Origin: Cereibacter sphaeroides 2.4.1
Lineage (GTDB): Bacteria > Pseudomonadota > Alphaproteobacteria > Rhodobacterales > Rhodobacteraceae
DNA length: 32,000 nucleotides
Direction: 5' to 3'
Assembly (NCBI RefSeq): GCF_000012905.2
Contig: NC_007490.2
Coordinates: 30,001-62,000 of the forward strand
Shown: one piece after another, positions 11,342 to 20,350 of the stretch
Numbering within the stretch: position 1 is the stretch's first letter
How the letters are laid out: each line of letters starts with the position of its first letter
The notes under the pieces: generated by a model
Told to the model about the DNA's origin: nothing
Seen by the model: only the letters and a program-made list of their open reading frames with translations
The model's database searches: none
Translations under genes and position numbers: made by a program

Positions 11342-14137
11342 ATGACGATCTCTGGGGGCACCTTCGACCCTTCGATCTGCGAGATGGAACCGATCGCCAC
11401 GCCCGGCGCGATCCAGCCGCACGGAGCGCTGATGACCGCGCGGGCCGACAGCGGCCGCGTCGCCCATGCCAGCGTCAACTTGGGCGAGATCCTCGGCCTG
11501 CCCGCGGCCTCGGTTCTGGGGGCGCCCATCGGAGAGGTGATCGGGCGCGTCAACGAGATCTTGCTGCGCGAGGCGCGTCGTAGCGGCTCCGAGACGCCGG
11601 AAACAATCGGGTCCTTCCGCAGAAGCGACGGACAGCTGCTGCATCTCCATGCGTTCCAGTCGGGCGACTACATGTGCCTCGACATCGAGCCGGTGCGCGA
11701 TGAGGATGGCCGGCTCCCTCCGGGAGCCAGGCAATCGGTTATCGAGACCTTCTCCAGCGCCATGACGCAGGTGGAACTCTGCGAGCTCGCGGTTCACGGG
11801 CTGCAGCTGGTGCTGGGCTATGACCGGGTGATGGCCTATCGCTTCGGCGCTGACGGACATGGCGAGGTTATCGCCGAGCGGCGCCGGCAGGATCTCGAGC
11901 CTTACCTGGGCTTGCACTACCCGGCATCGGACATTCCGCAAATCGCGCGCGCGCTCTACCTGCGCCAGAGGGTGGGTGCCATTGCGGATGCGTGCTACCG
12001 GCCGGTTCCGTTGCTCGGCCATCCCGAGCTCGACGACGGCAAGCCCCTCGACCTGACGCACAGTTCGCTGCGCAGCGTCTCGCCGGTCCATCTCGACTAC
12101 ATGCAGAACATGAACACGGCGGCCAGCCTGACCATCGGGCTGGCCGACGGCGACAGGCTGTGGGGGATGCTGGTCTGCCACAACACGACCCCCCGTATTG
12201 CCGGCCCCGAGTGGCGTGCGGCGGCGGGCATGATCGGGCAAGTGGTCTCGCTGCTCCTGAGCCGGCTGGGCGAGGTCGAGAATGCCGCCGAGACACTGGC
12301 CCGGCAGTCGACGCTCTCGACGCTGGTCGAACGGCTATCGACCGGTGATACGCTGGCTGCGGCATTTGTCGCGGCAGATCAGCTGATCCTCGATCTGGTC
12401 GGAGCCAGTGCCGCGGTCGTGCGGCTGGCTGGACAGGAATTGCACTTCGGGCGGACGCCGCCGGTCGATGCGATGCAGAAGGTCCTGGACAGTCTGGGTC
12501 GCCCCTCGCCCCTGGAGGTGCTGTCCCTCGACGACGTCACCCTGCGCCATCCCGAGCTGCCAGAGCTGCTGGCGGCCGGAAGCGGCATCCTGCTGCTCCC
12601 CCTGACATCCGGGGACGGAGATCTGATCGCCTGGTTCCGCCCTGAGCATGTGCAGACGATCACCTGGGGTGGCAATCCGGCCGAACATGGCACTTGGAAC
12701 CCGGCAACGCAGCGGATGAGACCGCGCGCCTCGTTCGACGCCTGGAAGGAGACAGTCACCGGCCGCTCGCTTCCCTGGACCTCCGCCGAGCGAAATTGCG
12801 CGCGCGAGCTGGGTGAGGCGATCGCCGCCGAGATGGCGCAGCGAACTCGGGCCGAACTCGCGCGGCTGCGCCATTACGACCCGCTGACCGGCCTTGCGAA
12901 CCGCAGCTACCTTCAGGAGCGCCTGGCGCAGGACGGCCAGTCGGCGGCGGCCTTGCTCTTCATCGACCTCGACCGGTTCAAGGCCGTGAACGACTCGATG
13001 GGGCACGGCGTGGGCGACGGGCTGCTGATCGAAGTGGCACGCAGCCTCGTGGCAACCGTGCGTCCCCATGATCTGGTGGTCCGGCTCGGCGGTGACGAGT
13101 TTGTTGTGCTCTGTCACCGACTGGACGCGGCCGGGATCGTCAGCCTCGCCGAGCGGCTGCGGCAAGTGCTCGAGCAGCCCTTCGAGGTTGCTGGCCGCAA
13201 ATGCCACATCTCCGCCAGCATCGGAATCGCAATGGCGGACAGCATCGGCGATCTGGATCTGGTGCGGGCGGCCGACATCGCGATGTATGCCGCCAAGAAG
13301 AACGGTGGCAACCGGGGCGAGCTGTTCCGCCCCTCGCTGTACGAGGAGACGACGCAGCTCGTCGAACTCGACAACGACATGCGCGGAGCAATCGAAAGCG
13401 AACAGTTTCACCTCGTGTATCAGCCGATCTTCGCCCTCAACCCGGAGACAGAGAGGCTGGTGGGGTTCGAGGCTCTGCTGCGCTGGGACCATCCGCTCCA
13501 CGGTGCCCTGCAGCCCGGCATCTTCATCCCGCTCGCGGAAAGACTTGGGCACATCCATGCAATGGGCAACTGGGTCCTGCGTCGCGCGATCCTGCAGCTG
13601 CAAGCCTTCCGATCCGCCGGCCCGGAGCTGGATCTGAAGATGAACGTGAACGTGTCGCCCCTACAGCTGGCAAGGCCGGACTTTCTGGCGCGTCTCGCCG
13701 ACTTGCTGGCGCAGGTGCCCGACCTCCCGCGCCACGCACTTTGCCTCGAGATCACCGAGACGTCCCTGAGCGACGAGGCCGTCTCCGAGGCCTTGATCTC
13801 GATCCGGGCGCTCGGGGTGCGGATCGCCATCGACGATTTCGGCACAGGCTTCTCGTCGTTGGCCTGCCTGCGCCGACTGCCGGTGGATGTTGCGAAGCTG
13901 GACCGGGCCTTTCTCGGCGGCGGTCATACCGCGGCCCAGGACCATAGGTTCTTTGCCGCGGTCACCGGGCTGGTCCATGCGGCGGATCTGAAGGTGGTGC
14001 AGGAGGGCATCGAGACACTCGATCAGCTTGCCCTCGTTCGCGCGGCCGGGGCTGATTTCGCTCAGGGCTTCCACCTCGCCGCCCCACTCTCCATCGCCGC
14101 CGCGCTTGGCCTGATCGCGGCATCACGAAAGGAATGA
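11342..14137 (+). CDS. bphG: Bacteriophytochrome with GGDEF-EAL output (PAS-GAF-PHY-GGDEF-EAL; BphG1-like)
   Basis: The N-terminus MTISGGTFDPSICEMEPIATPGAIQPHGALM carries the biliverdin-binding Cys context. GAF motifs are YPASDIPQIARALY and SVSPVHLDYMQNM. The GGDEF motif is intact (RLGGDEFVVL). EAL motifs are intact (FEALLRW, DDFGTGFSSL, KLDRAF). Residues upstream of 11342 in the ORF track overlap bphO and show no phytochrome similarity. Confidence 0.9.
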   Translation: MTISGGTFDPSICEMEPIATPGAIQPHGALMTARADSGRVAHASVNLGEILGLPAASVLGAPIGEVIGRVNEILLREARRSGSETPETIGSFRRSDGQLLHLHAFQSGDYMCLDIEPVRDEDGRLPPGARQSVIETFSSAMTQVELCELAVHGLQLVLGYDRVMAYRFGADGHGEVIAERRRQDLEPYLGLHYPASDIPQIARALYLRQRVGAIADACYRPVPLLGHPELDDGKPLDLTHSSLRSVSPVHLDYMQNMNTAASLTIGLADGDRLWGMLVCHNTTPRIAGPEWRAAAGMIGQVVSLLLSRLGEVENAAETLARQSTLSTLVERLSTGDTLAAAFVAADQLILDLVGASAAVVRLAGQELHFGRTPPVDAMQKVLDSLGRPSPLEVLSLDDVTLRHPELPELLAAGSGILLLPLTSGDGDLIAWFRPEHVQTITWGGNPAEHGTWNPATQRMRPRASFDAWKETVTGRSLPWTSAERNCARELGEAIAAEMAQRTRAELARLRHYDPLTGLANRSYLQERLAQDGQSAAALLFIDLDRFKAVNDSMGHGVGDGLLIEVARSLVATVRPHDLVVRLGGDEFVVLCHRLDAAGIVSLAERLRQVLEQPFEVAGRKCHISASIGIAMADSIGDLDLVRAADIAMYAAKKNGGNRGELFRPSLYEETTQLVELDNDMRGAIESEQFHLVYQPIFALNPETERLVGFEALLRWDHPLHGALQPGIFIPLAERLGHIHAMGNWVLRRAILQLQAFRSAGPELDLKMNVNVSPLQLARPDFLARLADLLAQVPDLPRHALCLEITETSLSDEAVSEALISIRALGVRIAIDDFGTGFSSLACLRRLPVDVAKLDRAFLGGGHTAAQDHRFFAAVTGLVHAADLKVVQEGIETLDQLALVRAAGADFAQGFHLAAPLSIAAALGLIAASRKE

Positions 14138-14189
14138 CGCGGACCGGCGTGACGTGCCCCAAGGGTGTGGTTCGCTGTCAATGTTAATG

Positions 14190-14560
14190 CGTCGTAGATC
14201 TTGGCGCCACGGTTGAGGAGGCCGGCGTAGCGGGTGTAATTGGCAAGCCGGAAATCTCACTGCCAGTGGCGCCGGGAGTCGGCAGTGAAGCGATGAACGC
14301 GGGAGCCTTGTGGTTTAGTGGTGGCGCCAGGTCTCGACCACGATCCGGGCCGCGGCCAGGCTGTAGAAGATCTCGCCGGTCAGCAGCTCTTCGCGGAGCT
14401 TGGAGTTGAAGCTCTCGCAGTAGCAGTCCTCCACTGGCTGCCGGGCCGGACGAAAGCAGTACGGGCACCGACAGTGGGGTAGGCCGCGCACCTTCAGAGC
14501 ATGCGCCGCAGGCTCTGTCAGGCGCTTTCCCTGCACAATCGGCAACACCCCACTGGCAAG
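14190..14560 (-). pseudogene. IS3-family transposase C-terminal fragment
   Basis: Minus-strand translation is ...[59 protein letters not shown]. It aligns with the conserved ...ENGYxESFNxKLRDExLNxEIFxxLxEAxxVIExWRxHYNTxRPHSSLGYRPPAP. An in-frame TAA (14315-14317) replaces Tyr. No N-terminal part is present. Confidence 0.7.
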
Positions 14561-14598
14561 TTCTTCTCGCTGGTGTCATATTAAGTCCGGGCTGCGGC

Positions 14599-15153
14599 AT
14601 GCAGCAGAACCTGAAGGTTTCCATGAACGCAAGGACCGACAGCATCCGCGATCTGGCCGTGCCGCTGGGATCCGACGTCTTCCTGCGTTCGCTGCTTCGG
14701 GAACTGGCCGGCACGCTTGAGAAGGTCGTTGGCCTCGACGAAGCGTCTGGATACATCAGCGTTGTCGGCAGCGCGATGGGCGAGCATATCGATGGCGCCT
14801 ACCGCGGTGCTCTGCAGGTTGAAACGCTTAGCCGAGATCAGGTCGGCGCGGTGCTGGTGGATCTGAAGCGGCGTATCGAGGGCGATTTCTACATCCTCGA
14901 AGAGCGCGAAGAGCGTATCGTATTCGGCAACCGGCGCTGCCCCTTCCGCGAGCATGTGCTGGGTCGTCCATCGCTCTGCATGATGACCTCGAACGTCTTT
15001 GGCTCGATCGCGGCCGAGAATCTCGGCTATGCGAGGGTTGATATCGAGCAGTCGATCGCAGCGGGCGACGTGGGCTGCCGCGTGGTGGTATATTTTACCC
15101 CGAAGGAGACACCCGAACCTAACGCACGCGAGTATTTTAGGCGACAGGAGTGA
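14599..15153 (+). CDS. Small soluble Cys-motif protein resembling the MetOD1 (methanogen output domain 1) / V4R-type domain, stand-alone
   Basis: Motifs are [64 protein letters not shown] and DVGCRVVVY. The likely true start is ATG 14623, preceded by GAAGG at 14613-14617. The stop TGA (15151-15153) overlaps the kinase ATG. The family assignment is from memory of the motif, not from a search. Confidence 0.6.
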
Positions 15154-16187
15154 TGGCGGCAGGGATCGAGCAGTCGCTTCTGGATTTCCTTCAGGAGCCG
15201 GTCTTCCTTCTGACGCCGCAGGGCCGGATCATGCGTGCCAATGCTGCCGCCCTGCGCCTCATCGGCGGTGACCGCAGTGGCGAGGATCTGGGTTCCTTTC
15301 TTGAGACGCCGTCCAATGAGTTTCGGGCATGGCTGAGGTGCTGCTCGGGAACATCGAGCCCAATGGCAGGCCAGTTGCTGTTCCGCCAGCCGGAGGCGGG
15401 ACCCCGGCGCCTGCGGATGCAGGGGGCGAGGCTGCGCGAGGCGGGCGGGCATGTTATGATAGCGGTACGATGCACGGCCCCCGACTCCGACCGCTTCTCG
15501 GTACTCAAGAAGGAGGTGGCACAGCTGAATGCGGAGGCGCATGCGCGCCGCCAGCGCCAGTCGCTTCTGGAAGAGGCACTACACCGCAACATGATCATGC
15601 TGCGCGAACTCAACCACCGGGTGAAGAACAACATCCAGCTCATGGTCGGGCTCTTTTCGGCTGCCATCCGCGAGACCGGATCCGAGGAGGTGAGGGATGT
15701 GCTTCAGGCGGCCAACCAGCGCCTCCTTGCGGTCGGCGCGGCGCAGGCGCTGATGTACGAGACACAGCAAGTTTCGATGGTCTCTTCCGCCGCGTTCCTG
15801 GAGGCTCTGGCAAGCACCCTGTCGGTCACCCTTGGCCCCGAGGTGCGCCTCGAGGTTTCAGCTACCGAGGGGAGGCTGTCCAGTGAGGCCACCTTCCCGC
15901 TGGCGCTGATCGTGAACGAACTGGTGACGAACGCGGTCAAGCACGGGCTTCGCGGTGGGACAGGGGCGGTCCGCATCGTGTTGGATAGACAGGGGCATGA
16001 ATTCACGCTGATCGTGCAGGATGACGGCCCCGGGATTGTGACGGCTGGCTCGTGGCGCCGCTCCTCAGGACTGGGCATCGTGAAGGGACTGTGTCGCCAG
16101 CTTGGAGCCGAGCTACGAATCGAAAAACAAGATGGGGCGCGCATTATCGTGCGGTTCACCGATAGCGGGAACGAATTCCTTACATGA
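15153..16187 (+). CDS. Soluble sensor histidine kinase, PAS + HisKA_2/HWE-type dimerisation domain + HATPase
   Basis: The H-box is LRELNHRVKNNIQLMVGLF. The N-box is LIVNELVTNAVKHG and the G-box is VQDDGPGI...SGLGIVKGL. An N-terminal PAS-like region is present (FLLTPQGRIMRANAAALRLIG). No hydrophobic TM segment is visible. The ATG overlaps the upstream stop (TGATG). Confidence 0.85.
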   Translation: MAAGIEQSLLDFLQEPVFLLTPQGRIMRANAAALRLIGGDRSGEDLGSFLETPSNEFRAWLRCCSGTSSPMAGQLLFRQPEAGPRRLRMQGARLREAGGHVMIAVRCTAPDSDRFSVLKKEVAQLNAEAHARRQRQSLLEEALHRNMIMLRELNHRVKNNIQLMVGLFSAAIRETGSEEVRDVLQAANQRLLAVGAAQALMYETQQVSMVSSAAFLEALASTLSVTLGPEVRLEVSATEGRLSSEATFPLALIVNELVTNAVKHGLRGGTGAVRIVLDRQGHEFTLIVQDDGPGIVTAGSWRRSSGLGIVKGLCRQLGAELRIEKQDGARIIVRFTDSGNEFLT

Positions 16188-16648
16188 CCCTTTATAGCGT
16201 CGCGCCGCCTCAGGCTCCGGAAGACGCCAGCAAATTGGCGGCGACGTTGGAAAACGTGGGCGCAGGTCGGAAGCCGCCTGCCCGCATCCTCGTGGTCGAG
16301 GACGAGTGGCTAGTCGCCTGCGAGATCGAGGCCGCGCTCGCAGACGAGGGATTGGAAGTCGTCGGCATCGCCGCTAGCGCTGAGGAGGCACTCCAAATGG
16401 CCGAGGTTCATATGCCCGAACTGGTCTTGATGGACATCCGGATCCGTGGCAACGGCGACGGAATCTACGCGGCCCTCGAGATCAGCCGTCGCTTTGGCCT
16501 ACGGTCCCTCTTCGTGTCCGCCAATGACGATCCCGGAACCCGCGAGCGTGCTCAGGCGGCTCATCCGCTAGGCTGGTTGCCGAAGCCCTTTTCGACAATG
16601 CAGCTCGTTTCGGCCGTCGAAGAGGCGCTGCGGGGCCTTCGACCCTGA
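16184..16648 (+). CDS. Single-domain response regulator (receiver only) with an N-terminal extension of about 30 aa
   Basis: ILVVEDE acidic pocket, LVLMDIRI phospho-acceptor Asp context, and LPKPF conserved Lys. No output domain. ATGA overlap with the kinase stop (16184-16187). Confidence 0.85.
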   Translation: MTLYSVAPPQAPEDASKLAATLENVGAGRKPPARILVVEDEWLVACEIEAALADEGLEVVGIAASAEEALQMAEVHMPELVLMDIRIRGNGDGIYAALEISRRFGLRSLFVSANDDPGTRERAQAAHPLGWLPKPFSTMQLVSAVEEALRGLRP

Positions 16649-16730
16649 CGGTGATAATTGTCACACAGAAGTGAGCCGGGTTCGCAGTTACCCCGCGGAC
16701 TTGGCCAAGGGGGGTCCGAACTAGGCCGCA

Positions 16731-16850
16731 TTGCAGACAAATAGAGCTTCGAATTCCTCGTGGATTCGGTGGCAGAAGGCGGAATGCAGTCGCTTCGAGT
16801 TGTAGACCTGCTCCATGAACACAAACAAGCGGCAGCCAATCGGGGCGCGA
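16731..16850 (-). pseudogene. IS3-family transposase extreme C-terminal fragment
   Basis: Minus-strand translation is RLFVFMEQVYNSKRLHSAFCHRIHEEFEALF...*. It matches the conserved IS3 tail (..IEvFYNrkRlHSaLGYxSPxeFE). The stop is at 16731-16733. It is cut off upstream by the IS5-like fragment. Confidence 0.55.
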
Positions 16851-16952
16851 ATACGGAGACCTAAACACAGGTCTCTAGGCTCAGGACCCGTTGATCTGCT
16901 TGCGCCGCGCCGGCCGGCGTGATTCGCGGCCCTCGATCAACGGGGGGCCACG

Positions 16953-17200
16953 ATGAGCAATCTCTTCTGGTGACGGAAGCGCAGATGGAGCGGCTGCCGC
17001 CGTTCTTTCCGAGGAGCCATGGCAGGCCGCGGGTCGATGATCGAAGAGTGTTGAGCGGCATAATCTTCATCAACCGCAATGGCTTACGATGGTGCGATGC
17101 CCCCAAGGAATACGGTCCGGCCAAGACCCTGTACAACCGCTGGAAGCGTTGGAGCGACAATGGTGTCTTCGCACGGATCATGATGGGTCTGGGCGAAACA
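16953..17200 (+). pseudogene. IS5-family (IS427/IS1031-like, DUF4096-type N-terminus) transposase fragment, frameshifted and truncated
   Basis: MSNLFW then TGA (16971-16973). With a 1-nt shift the reading continues (L)VTEAQMERLPPFFPRSHGRPRVDDRRVLSGIIFINRNGLRWCDAPKEYGPAKTLYNRWKRWSDNGVFARIMMGL. Similarity is lost after about 17200. Confidence 0.7.
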
Positions 17201-17657
17201 CCTGAGCCTTTCTTCGGGCAGACCTTCTTCACCTGTGGATATCGTAACGTTGTGCGCGCGGGGGGCCGGCCTCTCTGGTTTTGGGTAGCGGCGAGGAACA
17301 TCGTGGGAGGCGCTGGTGACAGCCGAACCCGGCCTTGTCGAGAGCGTCTTGGTCGGTGCCCGATCGGAACCAATGGGGTTTCCGCCCTTCGCCTGCTGGC
17401 GCGATCGCTGCAGCACGGCCGAGCTCCTCCGCTTATCACTGCCCTATTCACGAGCTCGAGGTCTGCCAAGGACGGCAAATCCAAGTGGCAGCCGCTTGGA
17501 ATCGCGGCGCACATGGTTTAAAGGCGGGGCATTCGTCAGGACCCGGGTGCGATCCCCGGGTGGCTCCTCCGGCCGCCGATCCGCCGGACCACCGTTCAAA
17601 ACAGACGGAACGTTACCGGCGGGCCAAGGGCCACTGCCGGTCCAGAACGGATTATTC

Positions 17658-19148
17658 ATGATTTCTTTGACCACCTACCGCCAGGAGTGGCTGGGCAACC
17701 TGCGGGGCGACCTGCTTTCGGGCATTGTCGTGGCGCTTGCCCTCATCCCCGAGGCCATCGCCTTCTCTATCATCGCCGGGGTCGATCCGAAGGTGGGGCT
17801 CTACGCCTCCTTCTCGATCGCCGTCATCACCGCCATCGCGGGCGGACGGCCAGGGATGATCTCGGCCGCCACCGCCGCGACCGCCGTGCTGATGGTGACC
17901 CTCGTGCGCGATCACGGGCTGGAATATCTGCTGGCGGCGACCGTGCTGGCGGGGCTGATCCAGACCAGCGCGGGCTTCCTGCGGCTGGGCTTCGTCATGC
18001 GCTACGTTTCGCGCTCGGTGATGACGGGCTTCGTCAATGCGCTGGCGATCCTGATCTTCCTGGCGCAGCTGCCCGAACTCGATCCCCGGACCGTGCCGCC
18101 ACTGACCTACCTGCTGGTGGCGGGCGGGCTTGCGATCATCTACCTGTTCCCGCGGATCACCCGCGCCGTGCCCTCGCCGCTCGTCACCATCGTCGTGCTG
18201 ACGGCGCTGACCTTCGCGCTGGGGCTCGATGTGCGGACGGTGGGCGACATGGGCGCGCTGCCCGACACGCTGCCCATGTTCCTGATCCCCGACATCCCCC
18301 TGACCTTCGAGACGCTGCAGATCATCCTGCCCTATTCCATCGCCGTCGCGGTGGTGGGGCTTCTGGAAAGCCTGATGACGCAGAACATCGTGGACGACCT
18401 GACCGACACGCGCTCGAACCGCAACCAGGAGTGCATCGGCCAGGGTCTGGCCAACACCGCCACCGGCTTCATCGGCGGCATGGCGGGCTGCGCCATGATC
18501 GGCCAGTCGATCATCAACGTGAAGTCGGGCGGGCGCGGGCGACTGTCGTCCTTTGCCGCCGGGGTCTACCTGCTGTTCATGGTGGTCGTGCTGGGCGATC
18601 TGGTCAGCCGGATCCCGATGGCGGCGCTGGTGGCGATCATGATCATGGTCTCGATCGGCACCTTCTCGTGGTCGTCAGTGAAGTCGCTGCGCACCCATCC
18701 GCGCTCGTCCTCGGTGGTGATGCTGGCGACGGTGGCGACCGTGGTCTGGACCCACAATCTGGCCATCGGCGTTCTGGTGGGCGTCCTGCTGTCGGGGATC
18801 TTCTTCGCGGCCAAGATCGCGCAGCTGTTCGGTGTGACATCAGAGCTGTCTAAGGACGGGCGCGAACGGATCTATAGGGTCGAGGGCCAGCTGTTCTATG
18901 CCTCGGTCGAGGATTTCATGGCGGCCTTCGACTTCCGTGAGGCACTCGACCGCGTGGTGATCGACGTGAGCCGCGCCCATATCTGGGACATCTCGTCGGT
19001 TCAGGCGCTGGACATGGCGGTGCTGAAGTTCCGCCGCGAAGGTGCCGAGGTGCGGATCGTTGGTATGAACGAGGCCTCGGAAACCATGGTGGACCGGCTG
19101 GCCATCCATGACAAGCCGGGCGCGATGGACCGGCTGGTGGCGCATTGA
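17658..19148 (+). CDS. SulP-family anion transporter with C-terminal STAS domain
   Basis: [42 protein letters not shown] is the canonical SulP N-terminus. It has multiple TM segments and a C-terminal STAS-like region ([15 protein letters not shown]...[11 protein letters not shown]). The 114 residues upstream in the ORF track show no transporter similarity. Confidence 0.9.
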
Positions 19149-19159
19149 GAGAGGATGAG

Positions 19160-20008
19160 ATGACGGACAGGATTTTGGCGCTGGTGGACGGTTCGGACTT
19201 CTCGCGCAGCGTCTGCCTGCATGCGGCTTGGATCGCGCAGAGGCTCGAGCTTCCAGTGGACCTCCTGCATGTGCTGGGCCGACGAGAGGCGGCGGACCGG
19301 GGTGACCGTTCCGGTGCGCTCTCGCTGGGGGCGCGGACCGCGCTGCTCGAGGAACTGGCCGCGCTCGATGCAGCGCGGGCGCGGCTGGCGCAGGCAAAGG
19401 GGCGGGCGATCCTCGAGGATGCGCAGGCGATCCTGGCCGCCGAGAGCGTCGAGGCGACGCCCCATCTGCGGCAGGGAGACCTGATCGACACGGTGGCCGA
19501 GATCGAGCCCTCCATCCGGGCGCTGGTGGTCGGCAAGAGGGGCGAGGCGGCAGGCTTCGCCAGCGACCATCTCGGCTCGAACCTCGAGCGCATCCTGCGG
19601 GCGACGACGGTGCCGGTCTTCATCGCGACCGCAGACTACCGGCCGGTGCGCAAGGTGTTGGTGGCCTATGACGGCGGCGCCAGCGCGCGTGTGGCGATCG
19701 ACCGGATGGCGGCGAGCCCGGTATTCCGCGGCCTTGCGATCACGCTGACCTGCGCGGGCAACGCGGACGAGGCCAGCCGCAAGCTCGAGCGCGCCCGCGG
19801 CACGCTTCTGGCCGCCGGAGTCGAGGTCGAGACCTGCATTGTTCCCGGAGAGCCCGAGGTGGCGCTGCAAGCAAAGATCGAGGCCGAGGGCTTTGACCTG
19901 CTGGTGATGGGCGCCTATGGCCACAGCCGGATCCGCAGCCTGATCATCGGCTCGACCACCACCGCCCTGATCCGCGCCTGCACCATCCCCATGCTGGTCT
20001 ACCGGTAG
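19160..20008 (+). CDS. Universal stress protein, tandem Usp domains
   Basis: MTDRILALVDGS... and a second domain VLVAYDGGASA...LLVMGAYGHSRIRSLIIGSTTTALIRACTIPMLVY. GAGAGG lies upstream of ATG 19160, which is 11 nt after the SulP stop. Confidence 0.85.
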   Translation: MTDRILALVDGSDFSRSVCLHAAWIAQRLELPVDLLHVLGRREAADRGDRSGALSLGARTALLEELAALDAARARLAQAKGRAILEDAQAILAAESVEATPHLRQGDLIDTVAEIEPSIRALVVGKRGEAAGFASDHLGSNLERILRATTVPVFIATADYRPVRKVLVAYDGGASARVAIDRMAASPVFRGLAITLTCAGNADEASRKLERARGTLLAAGVEVETCIVPGEPEVALQAKIEAEGFDLLVMGAYGHSRIRSLIIGSTTTALIRACTIPMLVYR

Positions 20009-20014
20009 TCCGGG

Positions 20015-20350
20015 ATGGAGGAAGATTTTGCCGTCCGCTACGGCCCGCGCCTGCGCGCCGAACTTGCCGAACTGAGAGCCGCGTCCGAGGGCGCGCTCGA
20101 GGCCCGGCGCCCGGTGGAGTTGGATCAGCAGAGCGTCGGTCGGCTTTCGCGGATGGATGCGCTGCAGGGTCAGGCGATGGCGCAGGCGGTGGATGTCCGC
20201 CGCGCCGCCCGCCAGCGTGTGGTGGAAGCCGCGCTGTCGCGACTGGAAAGCGGCGAATTCGGCTGGTGCGAGGCCTGTGGCGAGCATATCGGCGTGAAGC
20301 GGCTGGACCTAGACCCAACGCTCGTGCGTTGCGTGGGCTGCGCGCGCTGA
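20015..20350 (+). CDS. DksA/TraR-family C4 zinc-finger protein
   Basis: The C-terminus CEACGEHIGVKRLDLDPTLVRCVGCA is CxxC-N17-CxxC. Upstream is a coiled-coil-like region with the LSRMDALQGQAM motif. It starts 6 nt after the USP stop. Confidence 0.8.
   Translation: MEEDFAVRYGPRLRAELAELRAASEGALEARRPVELDQQSVGRLSRMDALQGQAMAQAVDVRRAARQRVVEAALSRLESGEFGWCEACGEHIGVKRLDLDPTLVRCVGCAR

Follow-up and report, generated by a model that had tools for sequence, protein, structure and literature searches.

A stretch of 32,000 nucleotides (nt) from Cereibacter sphaeroides 2.4.1 (contig NC_007490.2, positions 30,001 to 62,000; referred to below as the window) contains three consecutive genes, which encode a small stand-alone protein of the MetOD1 family, a soluble sensor histidine kinase and a receiver-only response regulator. 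Comparison of this triad with its relatives points to a conserved pair, consisting of MetOD1 and the PAS-like N-terminal module of the kinase (PAS-N), which probably forms the input of the signalling enzyme. Window 14000-17000 is 99.9% identical to the ~153-kb plasmid of this strain. All three open reading frames (ORFs) lie on the plus strand (14599..15153, 15150/15153..16187 and 16184..16648). As described in the initial annotation, which was made from the sequence alone, they are joined by overlapping stop and start codons: TGA 15151-15153 and ATG 15153-15155 have one A in common, and ATG 16184-16186 overlaps TGA 16185-16187. The features of the locus are as follows (aa, amino acids).

14553..14581, + strand: predicted RpoH-type (sigma-32 family) operon promoter, CTGGCAAGTTCTTCTCGCTGGTGTCATAT (exact match to a published prediction, PMC3441632 Table S2)
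14623..15153, + strand: stand-alone MetOD1-family protein, 176 aa (Pfam PF18546, AlphaFold2, Foldseek, conserved start codon and ribosome-binding site)
15151..15155, + strand: TGATG stop/start overlap of the MetOD1 and kinase genes (read from the sequence)
15153..16187, + strand: PAS-HisKA_2 soluble sensor histidine kinase, 344 aa (Pfam, motif positions, hydropathy)
15153..15572, + strand: PAS-N, a PAS-like N-terminal kinase module of about 140 aa with a C-terminal helical linker (Pfam PAS, E 9.4e-6; phmmer; profile hidden Markov model, HMM)
16184..16187, + strand: ATGA start/stop overlap of the kinase and regulator genes (read from the sequence)
16184..16648, + strand: receiver-only response regulator, 154 aa (Pfam Response_reg alone)

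The RefSeq annotation names the three products 'methanogen output domain 1-containing protein', 'histidine kinase dimerization/phosphoacceptor domain-containing protein' and 'response regulator', and the assignment of the MetOD1 domain is therefore not new. Upstream of the triad, it places a biliverdin-producing heme oxygenase and a phytochrome-GGDEF-EAL protein (BphG1). The first ORF has two possible start codons, ATG 14599, which is the RefSeq start and gives 184 aa, and the second in-frame ATG 14623, which gives 176 aa. Rhodobacter sp. CZR27 and C. azotoformans retain ATG 14623 and a GAAGG-type ribosome-binding site, but not ATG 14599, and MetOD1 homologs are about 175-176 aa long. This identifies ATG 14623 as the true start, and of the range of 176-184 aa given initially, the lower value is retained.

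The kinase contains PAS, HisKA_2 (55.8 bits) and HATPase_c (42.5 bits) domains in Pfam, with the H-box at His155, the N-box at 255-265, G1 at 290-294 (DDGPG at 290) and G2 at 306-308 (GLG at 306). The regulator matches Response_reg (57.7 bits, residues 35-146 of 154) with no second domain, and retains Asp40, the phospho-acceptor Asp84, Ser112 and Lys134. The catalytic residues of both kinase and receiver are thus intact. No membrane segment was found in any of the three proteins (no 19-residue window reached a Kyte-Doolittle value of 1.6). The kinase is thus classified, from its domains, as a soluble member of the HisKA_2/HWE class and the regulator as a single-domain (receiver-only, REC-only) protein, in agreement with the earlier description of a kinase lacking a membrane segment and a regulator lacking an effector domain.

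The general stress response pair PhyK/PhyR was considered as an identity for these two proteins, and rejected. In NCBIfam, the kinase scored 89 bits against PhyK (equivalog cut-off 750) and the regulator 80 bits against PhyR (cut-off 240), the latter in the receiver part only, and the regulator has no sigma-like domain. The triad resembles the LovK-LovR and PhyK/PhyR network in having a soluble PAS-containing HisKA_2 kinase and a receiver-only regulator, and PhyK and the PhyR receiver are its best NCBIfam similarities. It differs from this network in lacking a LOV or sigma-like domain, and in having MetOD1 as an extra, obligatory subunit.

The small protein matched the Pfam family MetOD1 (PF18546) over profile positions 2-141 of 142 (E 2.2e-17, 63.9 bits against a cut-off of 23.8). 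This was the sole family found at E <= 0.1, with no match to V4R (PF02830), HNOB (PF07700) or ATC hydrolase. An AlphaFold2 model built on 20 homologs had a predicted local distance difference test score (pLDDT) of 86.3 and a predicted template modeling score (pTM) of 0.83. A Foldseek search of this model against the PDB returned Bet3/TRAPPC3 and the sensor domains of MopR, PoxR and DmpR at template modeling (TM) scores of 0.55-0.65, together with a weak match to the H-NOX-containing soluble guanylate cyclase (sGC). The protein is thus predicted to adopt a V4R/Bet3/H-NOX-type fold, and kinship between MetOD1 and V4R holds at the level of fold or superfamily alone. The initial assignment to a MetOD1/V4R type stands for MetOD1 and for the fold, and does not extend to the Pfam V4R family. 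A profile search of PDB sequences gave chance hits alone (E >= 0.02), so that MetOD1 has no sequence-detectable relative with a solved structure.

The best Foldseek matches were Bet3/TRAPPC3 proteins, including an Asgard archaeal TRAPPC3 (PDB 7YH3, 1WC8; E 1e-5 to 1e-3, TM up to 0.65), which share an alpha/beta-plait fold with a hydrophobic channel. Unlike MetOD1, they are subunits of eukaryotic or Asgard vesicle-tethering complexes, without a signalling context or a cysteine triad. The V4R-type sensor domains of MopR, PoxR and DmpR (PDB 5KBE, 5FRW, 6IY8; TM 0.55-0.62) are ligand-sensing N-terminal modules that likewise contain a cysteine cluster, which in these proteins binds zinc. They are, however, fused to an AAA+ output, their sequence similarity to MetOD1 in the structural alignments is 9-14%, MetOD1 gives no Pfam V4R match, and its cysteines are spaced differently, with one of them coming from a CPF loop.

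Three cysteines, C106, C119 and C152 (176-aa numbering), were invariant in 20/20 close homologs, and were present in 95%, 98.5% and 99%, respectively, of 150 representatives of 50%-identity clusters, bearing out the earlier remark on conserved-looking cysteines. All three occurred together in 107 of the 113 full-length representatives. C106 lies inside an invariant CPF and C152 inside GxxGC, and the CPF and CMMTSNVFG motifs are near-invariant. No His and no YxSxR motif occurred among the invariant columns of the 20 close homologs, which makes H-NOX-type heme ligation by MetOD1 appear unlikely. By analogy with the corresponding cluster of MopR and PoxR, the cysteines most plausibly hold a metal.

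MetOD1 was defined by Galperin et al. 2018 (PMC5847659) in response regulators of methanogens, mostly as their C-terminal part, and was called an output domain. The same work pointed out a relationship with HNOB, V4R and ATC hydrolase, and observed that its three conserved cysteines are common to PoxR and MopR. The C. sphaeroides protein agrees with this definition in its full-profile match, its three conserved cysteines and its HNOB/V4R-like secondary structure and fold. It differs in being bacterial, with relatives in many phyla, free-standing, first in its operon, and accompanied by a dedicated PAS partner of a kinase or phosphatase. It is not C-terminal to a receiver, the position behind the name 'output domain', but family membership still holds, because a stand-alone 'MetOD1' architecture is listed for archaea (PMC5847659). 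No Pfam domain besides MetOD1 was present in any of the 120 homologs listed.

To describe the occurrence of MetOD1 in bacteria, one genome per species was scanned, giving at least 598 loci, and the best 80 of these formed the neighborhood set. The family as a whole comprises at least 7,700 clusters at 90% identity and 593 clusters at 50% identity. The best 80 loci belong to several orders of Alphaproteobacteria and, at 62-73% identity, to Planctomycetota, Gemmatimonadota, Acidobacteriota, Verrucomicrobiota, Nitrospiraceae, Rhodothermaceae and one gammaproteobacterium. Plasmid copies were found in Streptomyces (58% identical) and Priestia (39%), and a MetOD1 gene stands in front of a PAS-N signalling enzyme in at least nine bacterial phyla.

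In loci of the alphaproteobacterial type, MetOD1 is directly followed by a HisKA_2 kinase in 50/50 cases, and a receiver-only regulator comes 40-250 nt past the kinase in about 48 of the 50. An ortholog of the C. sphaeroides regulator occupies this place in about 46 alphaproteobacterial loci. The order MetOD1-kinase-regulator thus recurs across Alphaproteobacteria, which the initial annotation had proposed to check. A Pfam scan of ten loci outside this type showed that 10/10 of the next genes encode soluble multi-PAS/GAF sensor domains, nine of them as complete HisKA kinases (six hybrid), while the tenth ORF has PAS and GAF alone. All-against-all clustering of 3,146 ORFs from the 80 loci revealed no other conserved neighbors; the further recurring clusters were antisense shadow ORFs. 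Separately, a Priestia megaterium plasmid (L083, 2772-6134) carries a distant stand-alone MetOD1 gene (39% identity, 205 aa) with no adjacent kinase. This gene adjoins a divergently oriented STAS-domain gene, near a gene for an RNA polymerase sigma factor.

The element common to the proteins encoded downstream of MetOD1 is PAS-N. The first ~140 residues of the C. sphaeroides kinase were used as a query, and then as a profile. With phmmer, PAS-N gave one match per downstream protein, always at the extreme N-terminus, despite the presence of several other PAS domains. The profile HMM, from whose building six of the loci had been left out, matched the N-terminal copy in 69 of 72 loci, at 65-163 bits except for one at 42 bits; the three remaining loci are truncated by contig ends. 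Other PAS domains in the same proteins scored at most 17 bits. When all ORFs of the loci were searched with the profile, 73 hits adjoined MetOD1 and four weak ones (18-31 bits) lay elsewhere, and a tblastn search of 72,556 plasmids with PAS-N gave ten hits, all directly adjoining a MetOD1 gene.

The spacing of the two coding regions is equally regular. Measured from the MetOD1 stop codon, the first PAS-N codon lies at -8 to +38 nt in 67 of 68 loci, which represent many phyla (median 10 nt), with an in-frame start codon overlapping the MetOD1 stop in 22 loci. The tight coupling proposed initially from the overlaps in C. sphaeroides is therefore seen family-wide at this junction. The arrangement of MetOD1 and PAS-N is far beyond chance.

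The enzymes attached to PAS-N differ between lineages. They are a HisKA_2 kinase accompanied by a receiver gene, a multi-PAS/GAF HisKA kinase or, in Streptomyces, a PP2C phosphatase. On a plasmid of Streptomyces sp. Caat 7-52 (L082, 3998-6105), the MetOD1 gene (58% identity) and a SpoIIE/PP2C phosphatase gene overlap by 4 nt, and this phosphatase, an independent sequence, begins with PAS-N (98 bits). Genes of the partner-switching type, for STAS-domain and RsbA-like anti-sigma proteins, lie near the pair, and the same input pair appears to be wired into a partner-switching pathway. Because the pair is kept while the attached output changes, the conserved unit is judged, by sequence comparison, to be MetOD1 plus PAS-N rather than a triad beside a phytochrome.

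Distant members of the family occur as fused domains. In eight examples among the cluster representatives, MetOD1 is the N-terminal domain of a HisKA or HisKA_2 kinase, which may or may not contain PAS/GAF. On a plasmid of Methylobacter sp. YRD-M1 (L084, 748-4392), a sigma-54 activator begins with a MetOD1-like domain, in the place held by the sensor domains of MopR, PoxR and DmpR. The N-terminal place in kinases and enhancer-binding proteins is a sensor position. Fusions of the anti-sigma-type kinase domain HATPase_c_2 with MetOD1 were also found (P0204, P0219, P0224, P0249, P0261, P0270), and some of these continue with a REC and/or a GerE DNA-binding domain. The Methylobacter activator gene is preceded, on the same strand, by genes encoding a carbonic anhydrase, a zinc-ribbon protein and a ZIP metal transporter, neighbors that possibly hint at metal (zinc) sensing by the MetOD1 family.

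These observations suggest that MetOD1 is a stand-alone cytoplasmic input module, or co-sensor, of its partner enzyme, a reading to which we assign a probability of roughly 60%. It rests on the retention of MetOD1 and PAS-N while the output is exchanged between HisKA_2 kinase, multi-PAS/GAF HisKA kinase and PP2C phosphatase, and on the N-terminal sensor position that distant MetOD1 domains hold in kinases and in the sigma-54 activator. The earlier statement that the triad has no recognisable input was, in light of these comparative data, too pessimistic, and the name 'output domain' is probably misleading for the bacterial clade.

MetOD1 could instead be an output, in which case the triad would be a split form of an archaeal REC-MetOD1 protein, with the phosphorylated receiver-only protein binding free MetOD1 and switching its effector or enzymatic activity. 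REC-MetOD1 and REC-PAS-MetOD1 architectures exist in archaea (PMC5847659), the REC-MetOD1 protein MA2445 of Methanosarcina acetivorans is a candidate for phosphorylation by the kinase MA4377, and in Alphaproteobacteria the three genes are co-conserved and the regulator lacks an effector domain of its own. The exchange of partners, however, makes an output role quite unlikely. The MetOD1/PAS-N pair is kept without a separate receiver gene, in the hybrid kinases, and with the PP2C phosphatase partner, where no two-component element is involved. MetOD1 always precedes, and is coupled to, PAS-N and not the receiver, the regulator lying 40-250 nt further on in most loci, and the bacterial fusions put MetOD1 N-terminal to kinase and sigma-54 AAA+ modules. 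Galperin et al. (PMC5847659) themselves caution that such REC-associated domains may be inputs.

The two halves of the pair have diverged at different rates. Over the same 63-67 loci, mean pairwise identity was 68% for MetOD1 and 31% for PAS-N. Recent horizontal transfer as the cause of the high MetOD1 identity was ruled out, since the adjoining PAS-N has diverged to 31% in the same loci. MetOD1 is thus under unusually strong constraint, which hints at the reading of an invariant cue or at contact with a conserved component of the cell. Because the difference in identity extends across phyla, a universal cue or partner is favored over a chemical peculiar to one niche. It could be a metal, the thiol redox state, a widespread cofactor or a core component of the cell. 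Cys64 of PAS-N was considered as a partner in thiol chemistry and discarded as not essential, being Cys in 57% of the sequences and Ala in most of the others.

The same slow divergence bears on the possibility that MetOD1 is an enzyme, namely a C-S-cleaving metal-dependent hydrolase akin to ATC hydrolase, or a cofactor carrier that loads PAS-N, with PAS-N reading the product or cargo. The mean identity across phyla, 68%, is a level seen more in enzymes than in ligand-sensing proteins, and the cysteine triad and the CPF and CMMTSNVFG motifs are near-invariant. Fold relatives hold covalent or enclosed lipid or tetrapyrrole ligands, Bet3-palmitate being among the Foldseek hits. Galperin et al. 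(PMC5847659) saw a similarity to ATC hydrolase and proposed a related enzymatic activity; in Pfam, however, the ATC hydrolase family gave no match and MetOD1 was the sole family at E <= 0.1. No metabolic genes are co-conserved nearby, and tight translational coupling together with N-terminal fusions to kinases and activators fits a regulatory subunit better. We consider an enzyme or carrier unlikely.

The initial annotation had stressed that the triad lies directly beside a bacteriophytochrome cyclic di-GMP (c-di-GMP) enzyme and its heme oxygenase. A functional tie to BphG1 and the heme oxygenase would imply sensing of biliverdin, heme or light, with c-di-GMP as the output. H-NOX binds heme and the fold superfamily includes tetrapyrrole binders, which would suit such a role. 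The adjacency is real in two lineages, as the order heme oxygenase-BphG-MetOD1-kinase-regulator recurs on a plasmid of Rhodobacter sp. CZR27 (L085, 1812-8148), where it is kept although the heme oxygenase and BphG have diverged to 61-62% identity with the window proteins. Over the same interval, MetOD1 is 94%, the kinase 88% and the regulator 86% identical, pointing to different histories, and CZR27 shares DNA at about 90% identity only over window ~14504-16651, which holds the promoter and the three genes. This uneven divergence suggests that exchange or homogenisation of the triad block took place independently of the phytochrome pair.

Outside these two lineages the adjacency was not found: none of the 80 genome loci has a BphG1 or heme-oxygenase homolog within 6 kb of MetOD1, including that of C. 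azotoformans, whose MetOD1 is 85% identical. In C. sphaeroides itself, a 460-nt gap and a separate, predicted RpoH-type promoter precede MetOD1, and the lack of an invariant His makes H-NOX-style heme ligation unlikely. From the loci compared, adjacency to the phytochrome appears to be lineage-specific, restricted to C. sphaeroides and Rhodobacter sp. CZR27. A functional link confined to these lineages is conceivable, but the general biology of the MetOD1 module does not involve a phytochrome. We regard a functional tie to BphG1 and the heme oxygenase as very unlikely. All three alternatives are less well supported than the co-sensor reading.

The operon is transcribed as part of a known regulon. 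Non-expression of the small ORF, raised at the outset as a result that would speak against the proposal, is countered by Dufour et al. 2012 (PMC3441632), who placed RSP_4193 in the RpoHI regulon on the basis of induction upon RpoHI expression and a signal in chromatin immunoprecipitation on microarrays (ChIP-chip). The group given for it is 'differential expression RpoHI, ChIP-chip RpoHI/II', and its annotation at that time was 'sigma-54 dependent transcriptional regulator'. The promoter predicted there for RSP_4193 is exactly window 14553-14581, 42 nt 5' of ATG 14623, and RSP_4193 is therefore the MetOD1 gene. The MetOD1 operon thus has its own RpoH-type promoter and shows RpoHI-dependent transcription.

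Both hexamer regions of this promoter are conserved in Rhodobacter sp. CZR27 and C. azotoformans. Scans for an RpoH-type motif before MetOD1 in other taxa (four regular expressions, two scans) showed no enrichment over control windows, and the predicted promoter thus appears to be conserved only within the Cereibacter/Rhodobacter clade. The HisKA_2/HWE kinase class serves the alphaproteobacterial general stress response. Membership of the RpoHI regulon here, the presence of partner-switching genes in Streptomyces and Priestia, and the general-stress kinase class together suggest a role in stress signalling.

Under the co-sensor reading, MetOD1 would dock on PAS-N of the downstream enzyme and, according to the condition of its cysteine/metal site or of a ligand bound in its hydrophobic pocket, would switch the catalytic domain via the helical linker after PAS-N. 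In C. sphaeroides, the HisKA_2 kinase would then phosphorylate itself on His155, with Asp84 of the receiver-only regulator as the next acceptor of the phosphate. Single-domain regulators that serve HWE/HisKA_2 kinases in Alphaproteobacteria work through contacts with other proteins, or as shuttles or sinks for phosphate, and the phosphorylated regulator may act in one of these ways.

Several points weigh against this reading. Both the binding of MetOD1 to PAS-N and the closeness in space of C106, C119 and C152 are inferred. In fused bacterial proteins, the PAS domain beside MetOD1 resembles PAS-N weakly (E about 1e-5). The very slow evolution of MetOD1 is atypical for small-molecule sensors, and could mean an enzymatic or structural role. 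Archaeal MetOD1 sits C-terminal to a receiver, a position usually read as output (PMC5847659), and the regulon tables of PMC3441632 list RSP_4193 alone, without the kinase or regulator genes.

The closest functional parallel is the H-NOX/HnoK system, for example that of Silicibacter sp. TrichCH4B. Stand-alone H-NOX proteins regulate kinases of the same operon (PMC4436077), and the two systems have in common a small stand-alone cytoplasmic protein of the same broad fold superfamily and an operon with a soluble kinase. In the H-NOX system, one or more response regulators act downstream and the sensor controls the kinase in trans; MetOD1 and its kinase are linked through their operon, a linkage conserved across phyla. 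In contrast to H-NOX, MetOD1 has no HNOB match, no proximal His and no YxSxR motif, but does have a three-cysteine cluster, and its partner is defined by the N-terminal PAS module. By this analogy, the MetOD1 system may functionally resemble H-NOX/HnoK with a different sensor chemistry.

A broader proposal, which we put forward tentatively and hold to be somewhat less probable than not, is that MetOD1 and PAS-N form an unrecognised pan-bacterial two-protein sensory cassette with a reach like that of H-NOX or NosP. The sensor, about 60-70% identical from Actinomycetota to Planctomycetota, would read a universal intracellular cue via a three-cysteine metal/redox center. It would be pluggable into histidine kinases and PP2C partner-switching phosphatases and, as a fused domain, into sigma-54 activators and anti-sigma-type kinases. 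'Methanogen output domain' would then be a misnomer for an ancient input domain.

Neither the MetOD1 family nor the kinase class is new, and stand-alone co-sensors are an established concept. Literature searches on MetOD1, methanogen output domain, V4R with histidine kinase and RSP_4189-4194 returned no functional work on the bacterial system, in line with the earlier statement that no functional characterisation of this arrangement was known. In the searched literature we found no account of the MetOD1/PAS-N cassette, nor of how far it extends across phyla, how its outputs are exchanged or how extremely it is conserved. To our knowledge, most cytoplasmic HWE/HisKA_2 kinases and many multi-PAS kinases have no known signal. 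If the co-sensor reading is true, a defined input protein that can be purified becomes available for the kinases and phosphatases of hundreds of species (at least 598 genome loci), and with it a testable cysteine/metal site and a defined docking domain. One more family would join the stand-alone cytoplasmic kinase co-sensors, H-NOX and NosP among them, and the reading of the archaeal 'output' domain would change. The C. sphaeroides system is tractable, being plasmid-borne in a genetically amenable model bacterium, transcribed under RpoHI, small, soluble and confidently predicted. The MetOD1/PAS-N pair is directly testable, and of interest to specialists in signal transduction.

An Rfam scan of 14050-17400 gave no match at E <= 1, and a sigma-70 promoter scan of the same interval gave no promoter-like site; the terminator-like sites returned by an intrinsic-terminator scan were uninformative. 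The ORF at 14184-14756 on the minus strand, like many other minus-strand ORFs, is a long antisense shadow ORF over real genes, as is typical of high-GC DNA. Directly 3' of the regulator gene, 16919-17521 on the plus strand encodes a fragment from the N-terminus of an IS4/IS5-family transposase (Pfam DUF4096, 74.9 bits), which, together with the block ~14504-16651 shared with CZR27, marks the right-hand edge of the module. On the other side of the triad, 14000-14215 (plus strand), comprising the 3' end of BphG1 and about 78 nt beyond it, is 90.7% identical to the end of an EAL-domain gene on a ~105-kb plasmid of the same strain, presumably a paralogous phytochrome gene.

Two further members of the published RpoHI regulon, RSP_4198 ('adaptations to atypical conditions') and RSP_4199, probably map to window ~19145-20350 on the plus strand. 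By gene order, they are probably a universal stress protein gene and a TraR/DksA zinc-finger gene, 3' of a SulP transporter. If so placed, this stretch of the plasmid has several targets of the heat-shock sigma factor.

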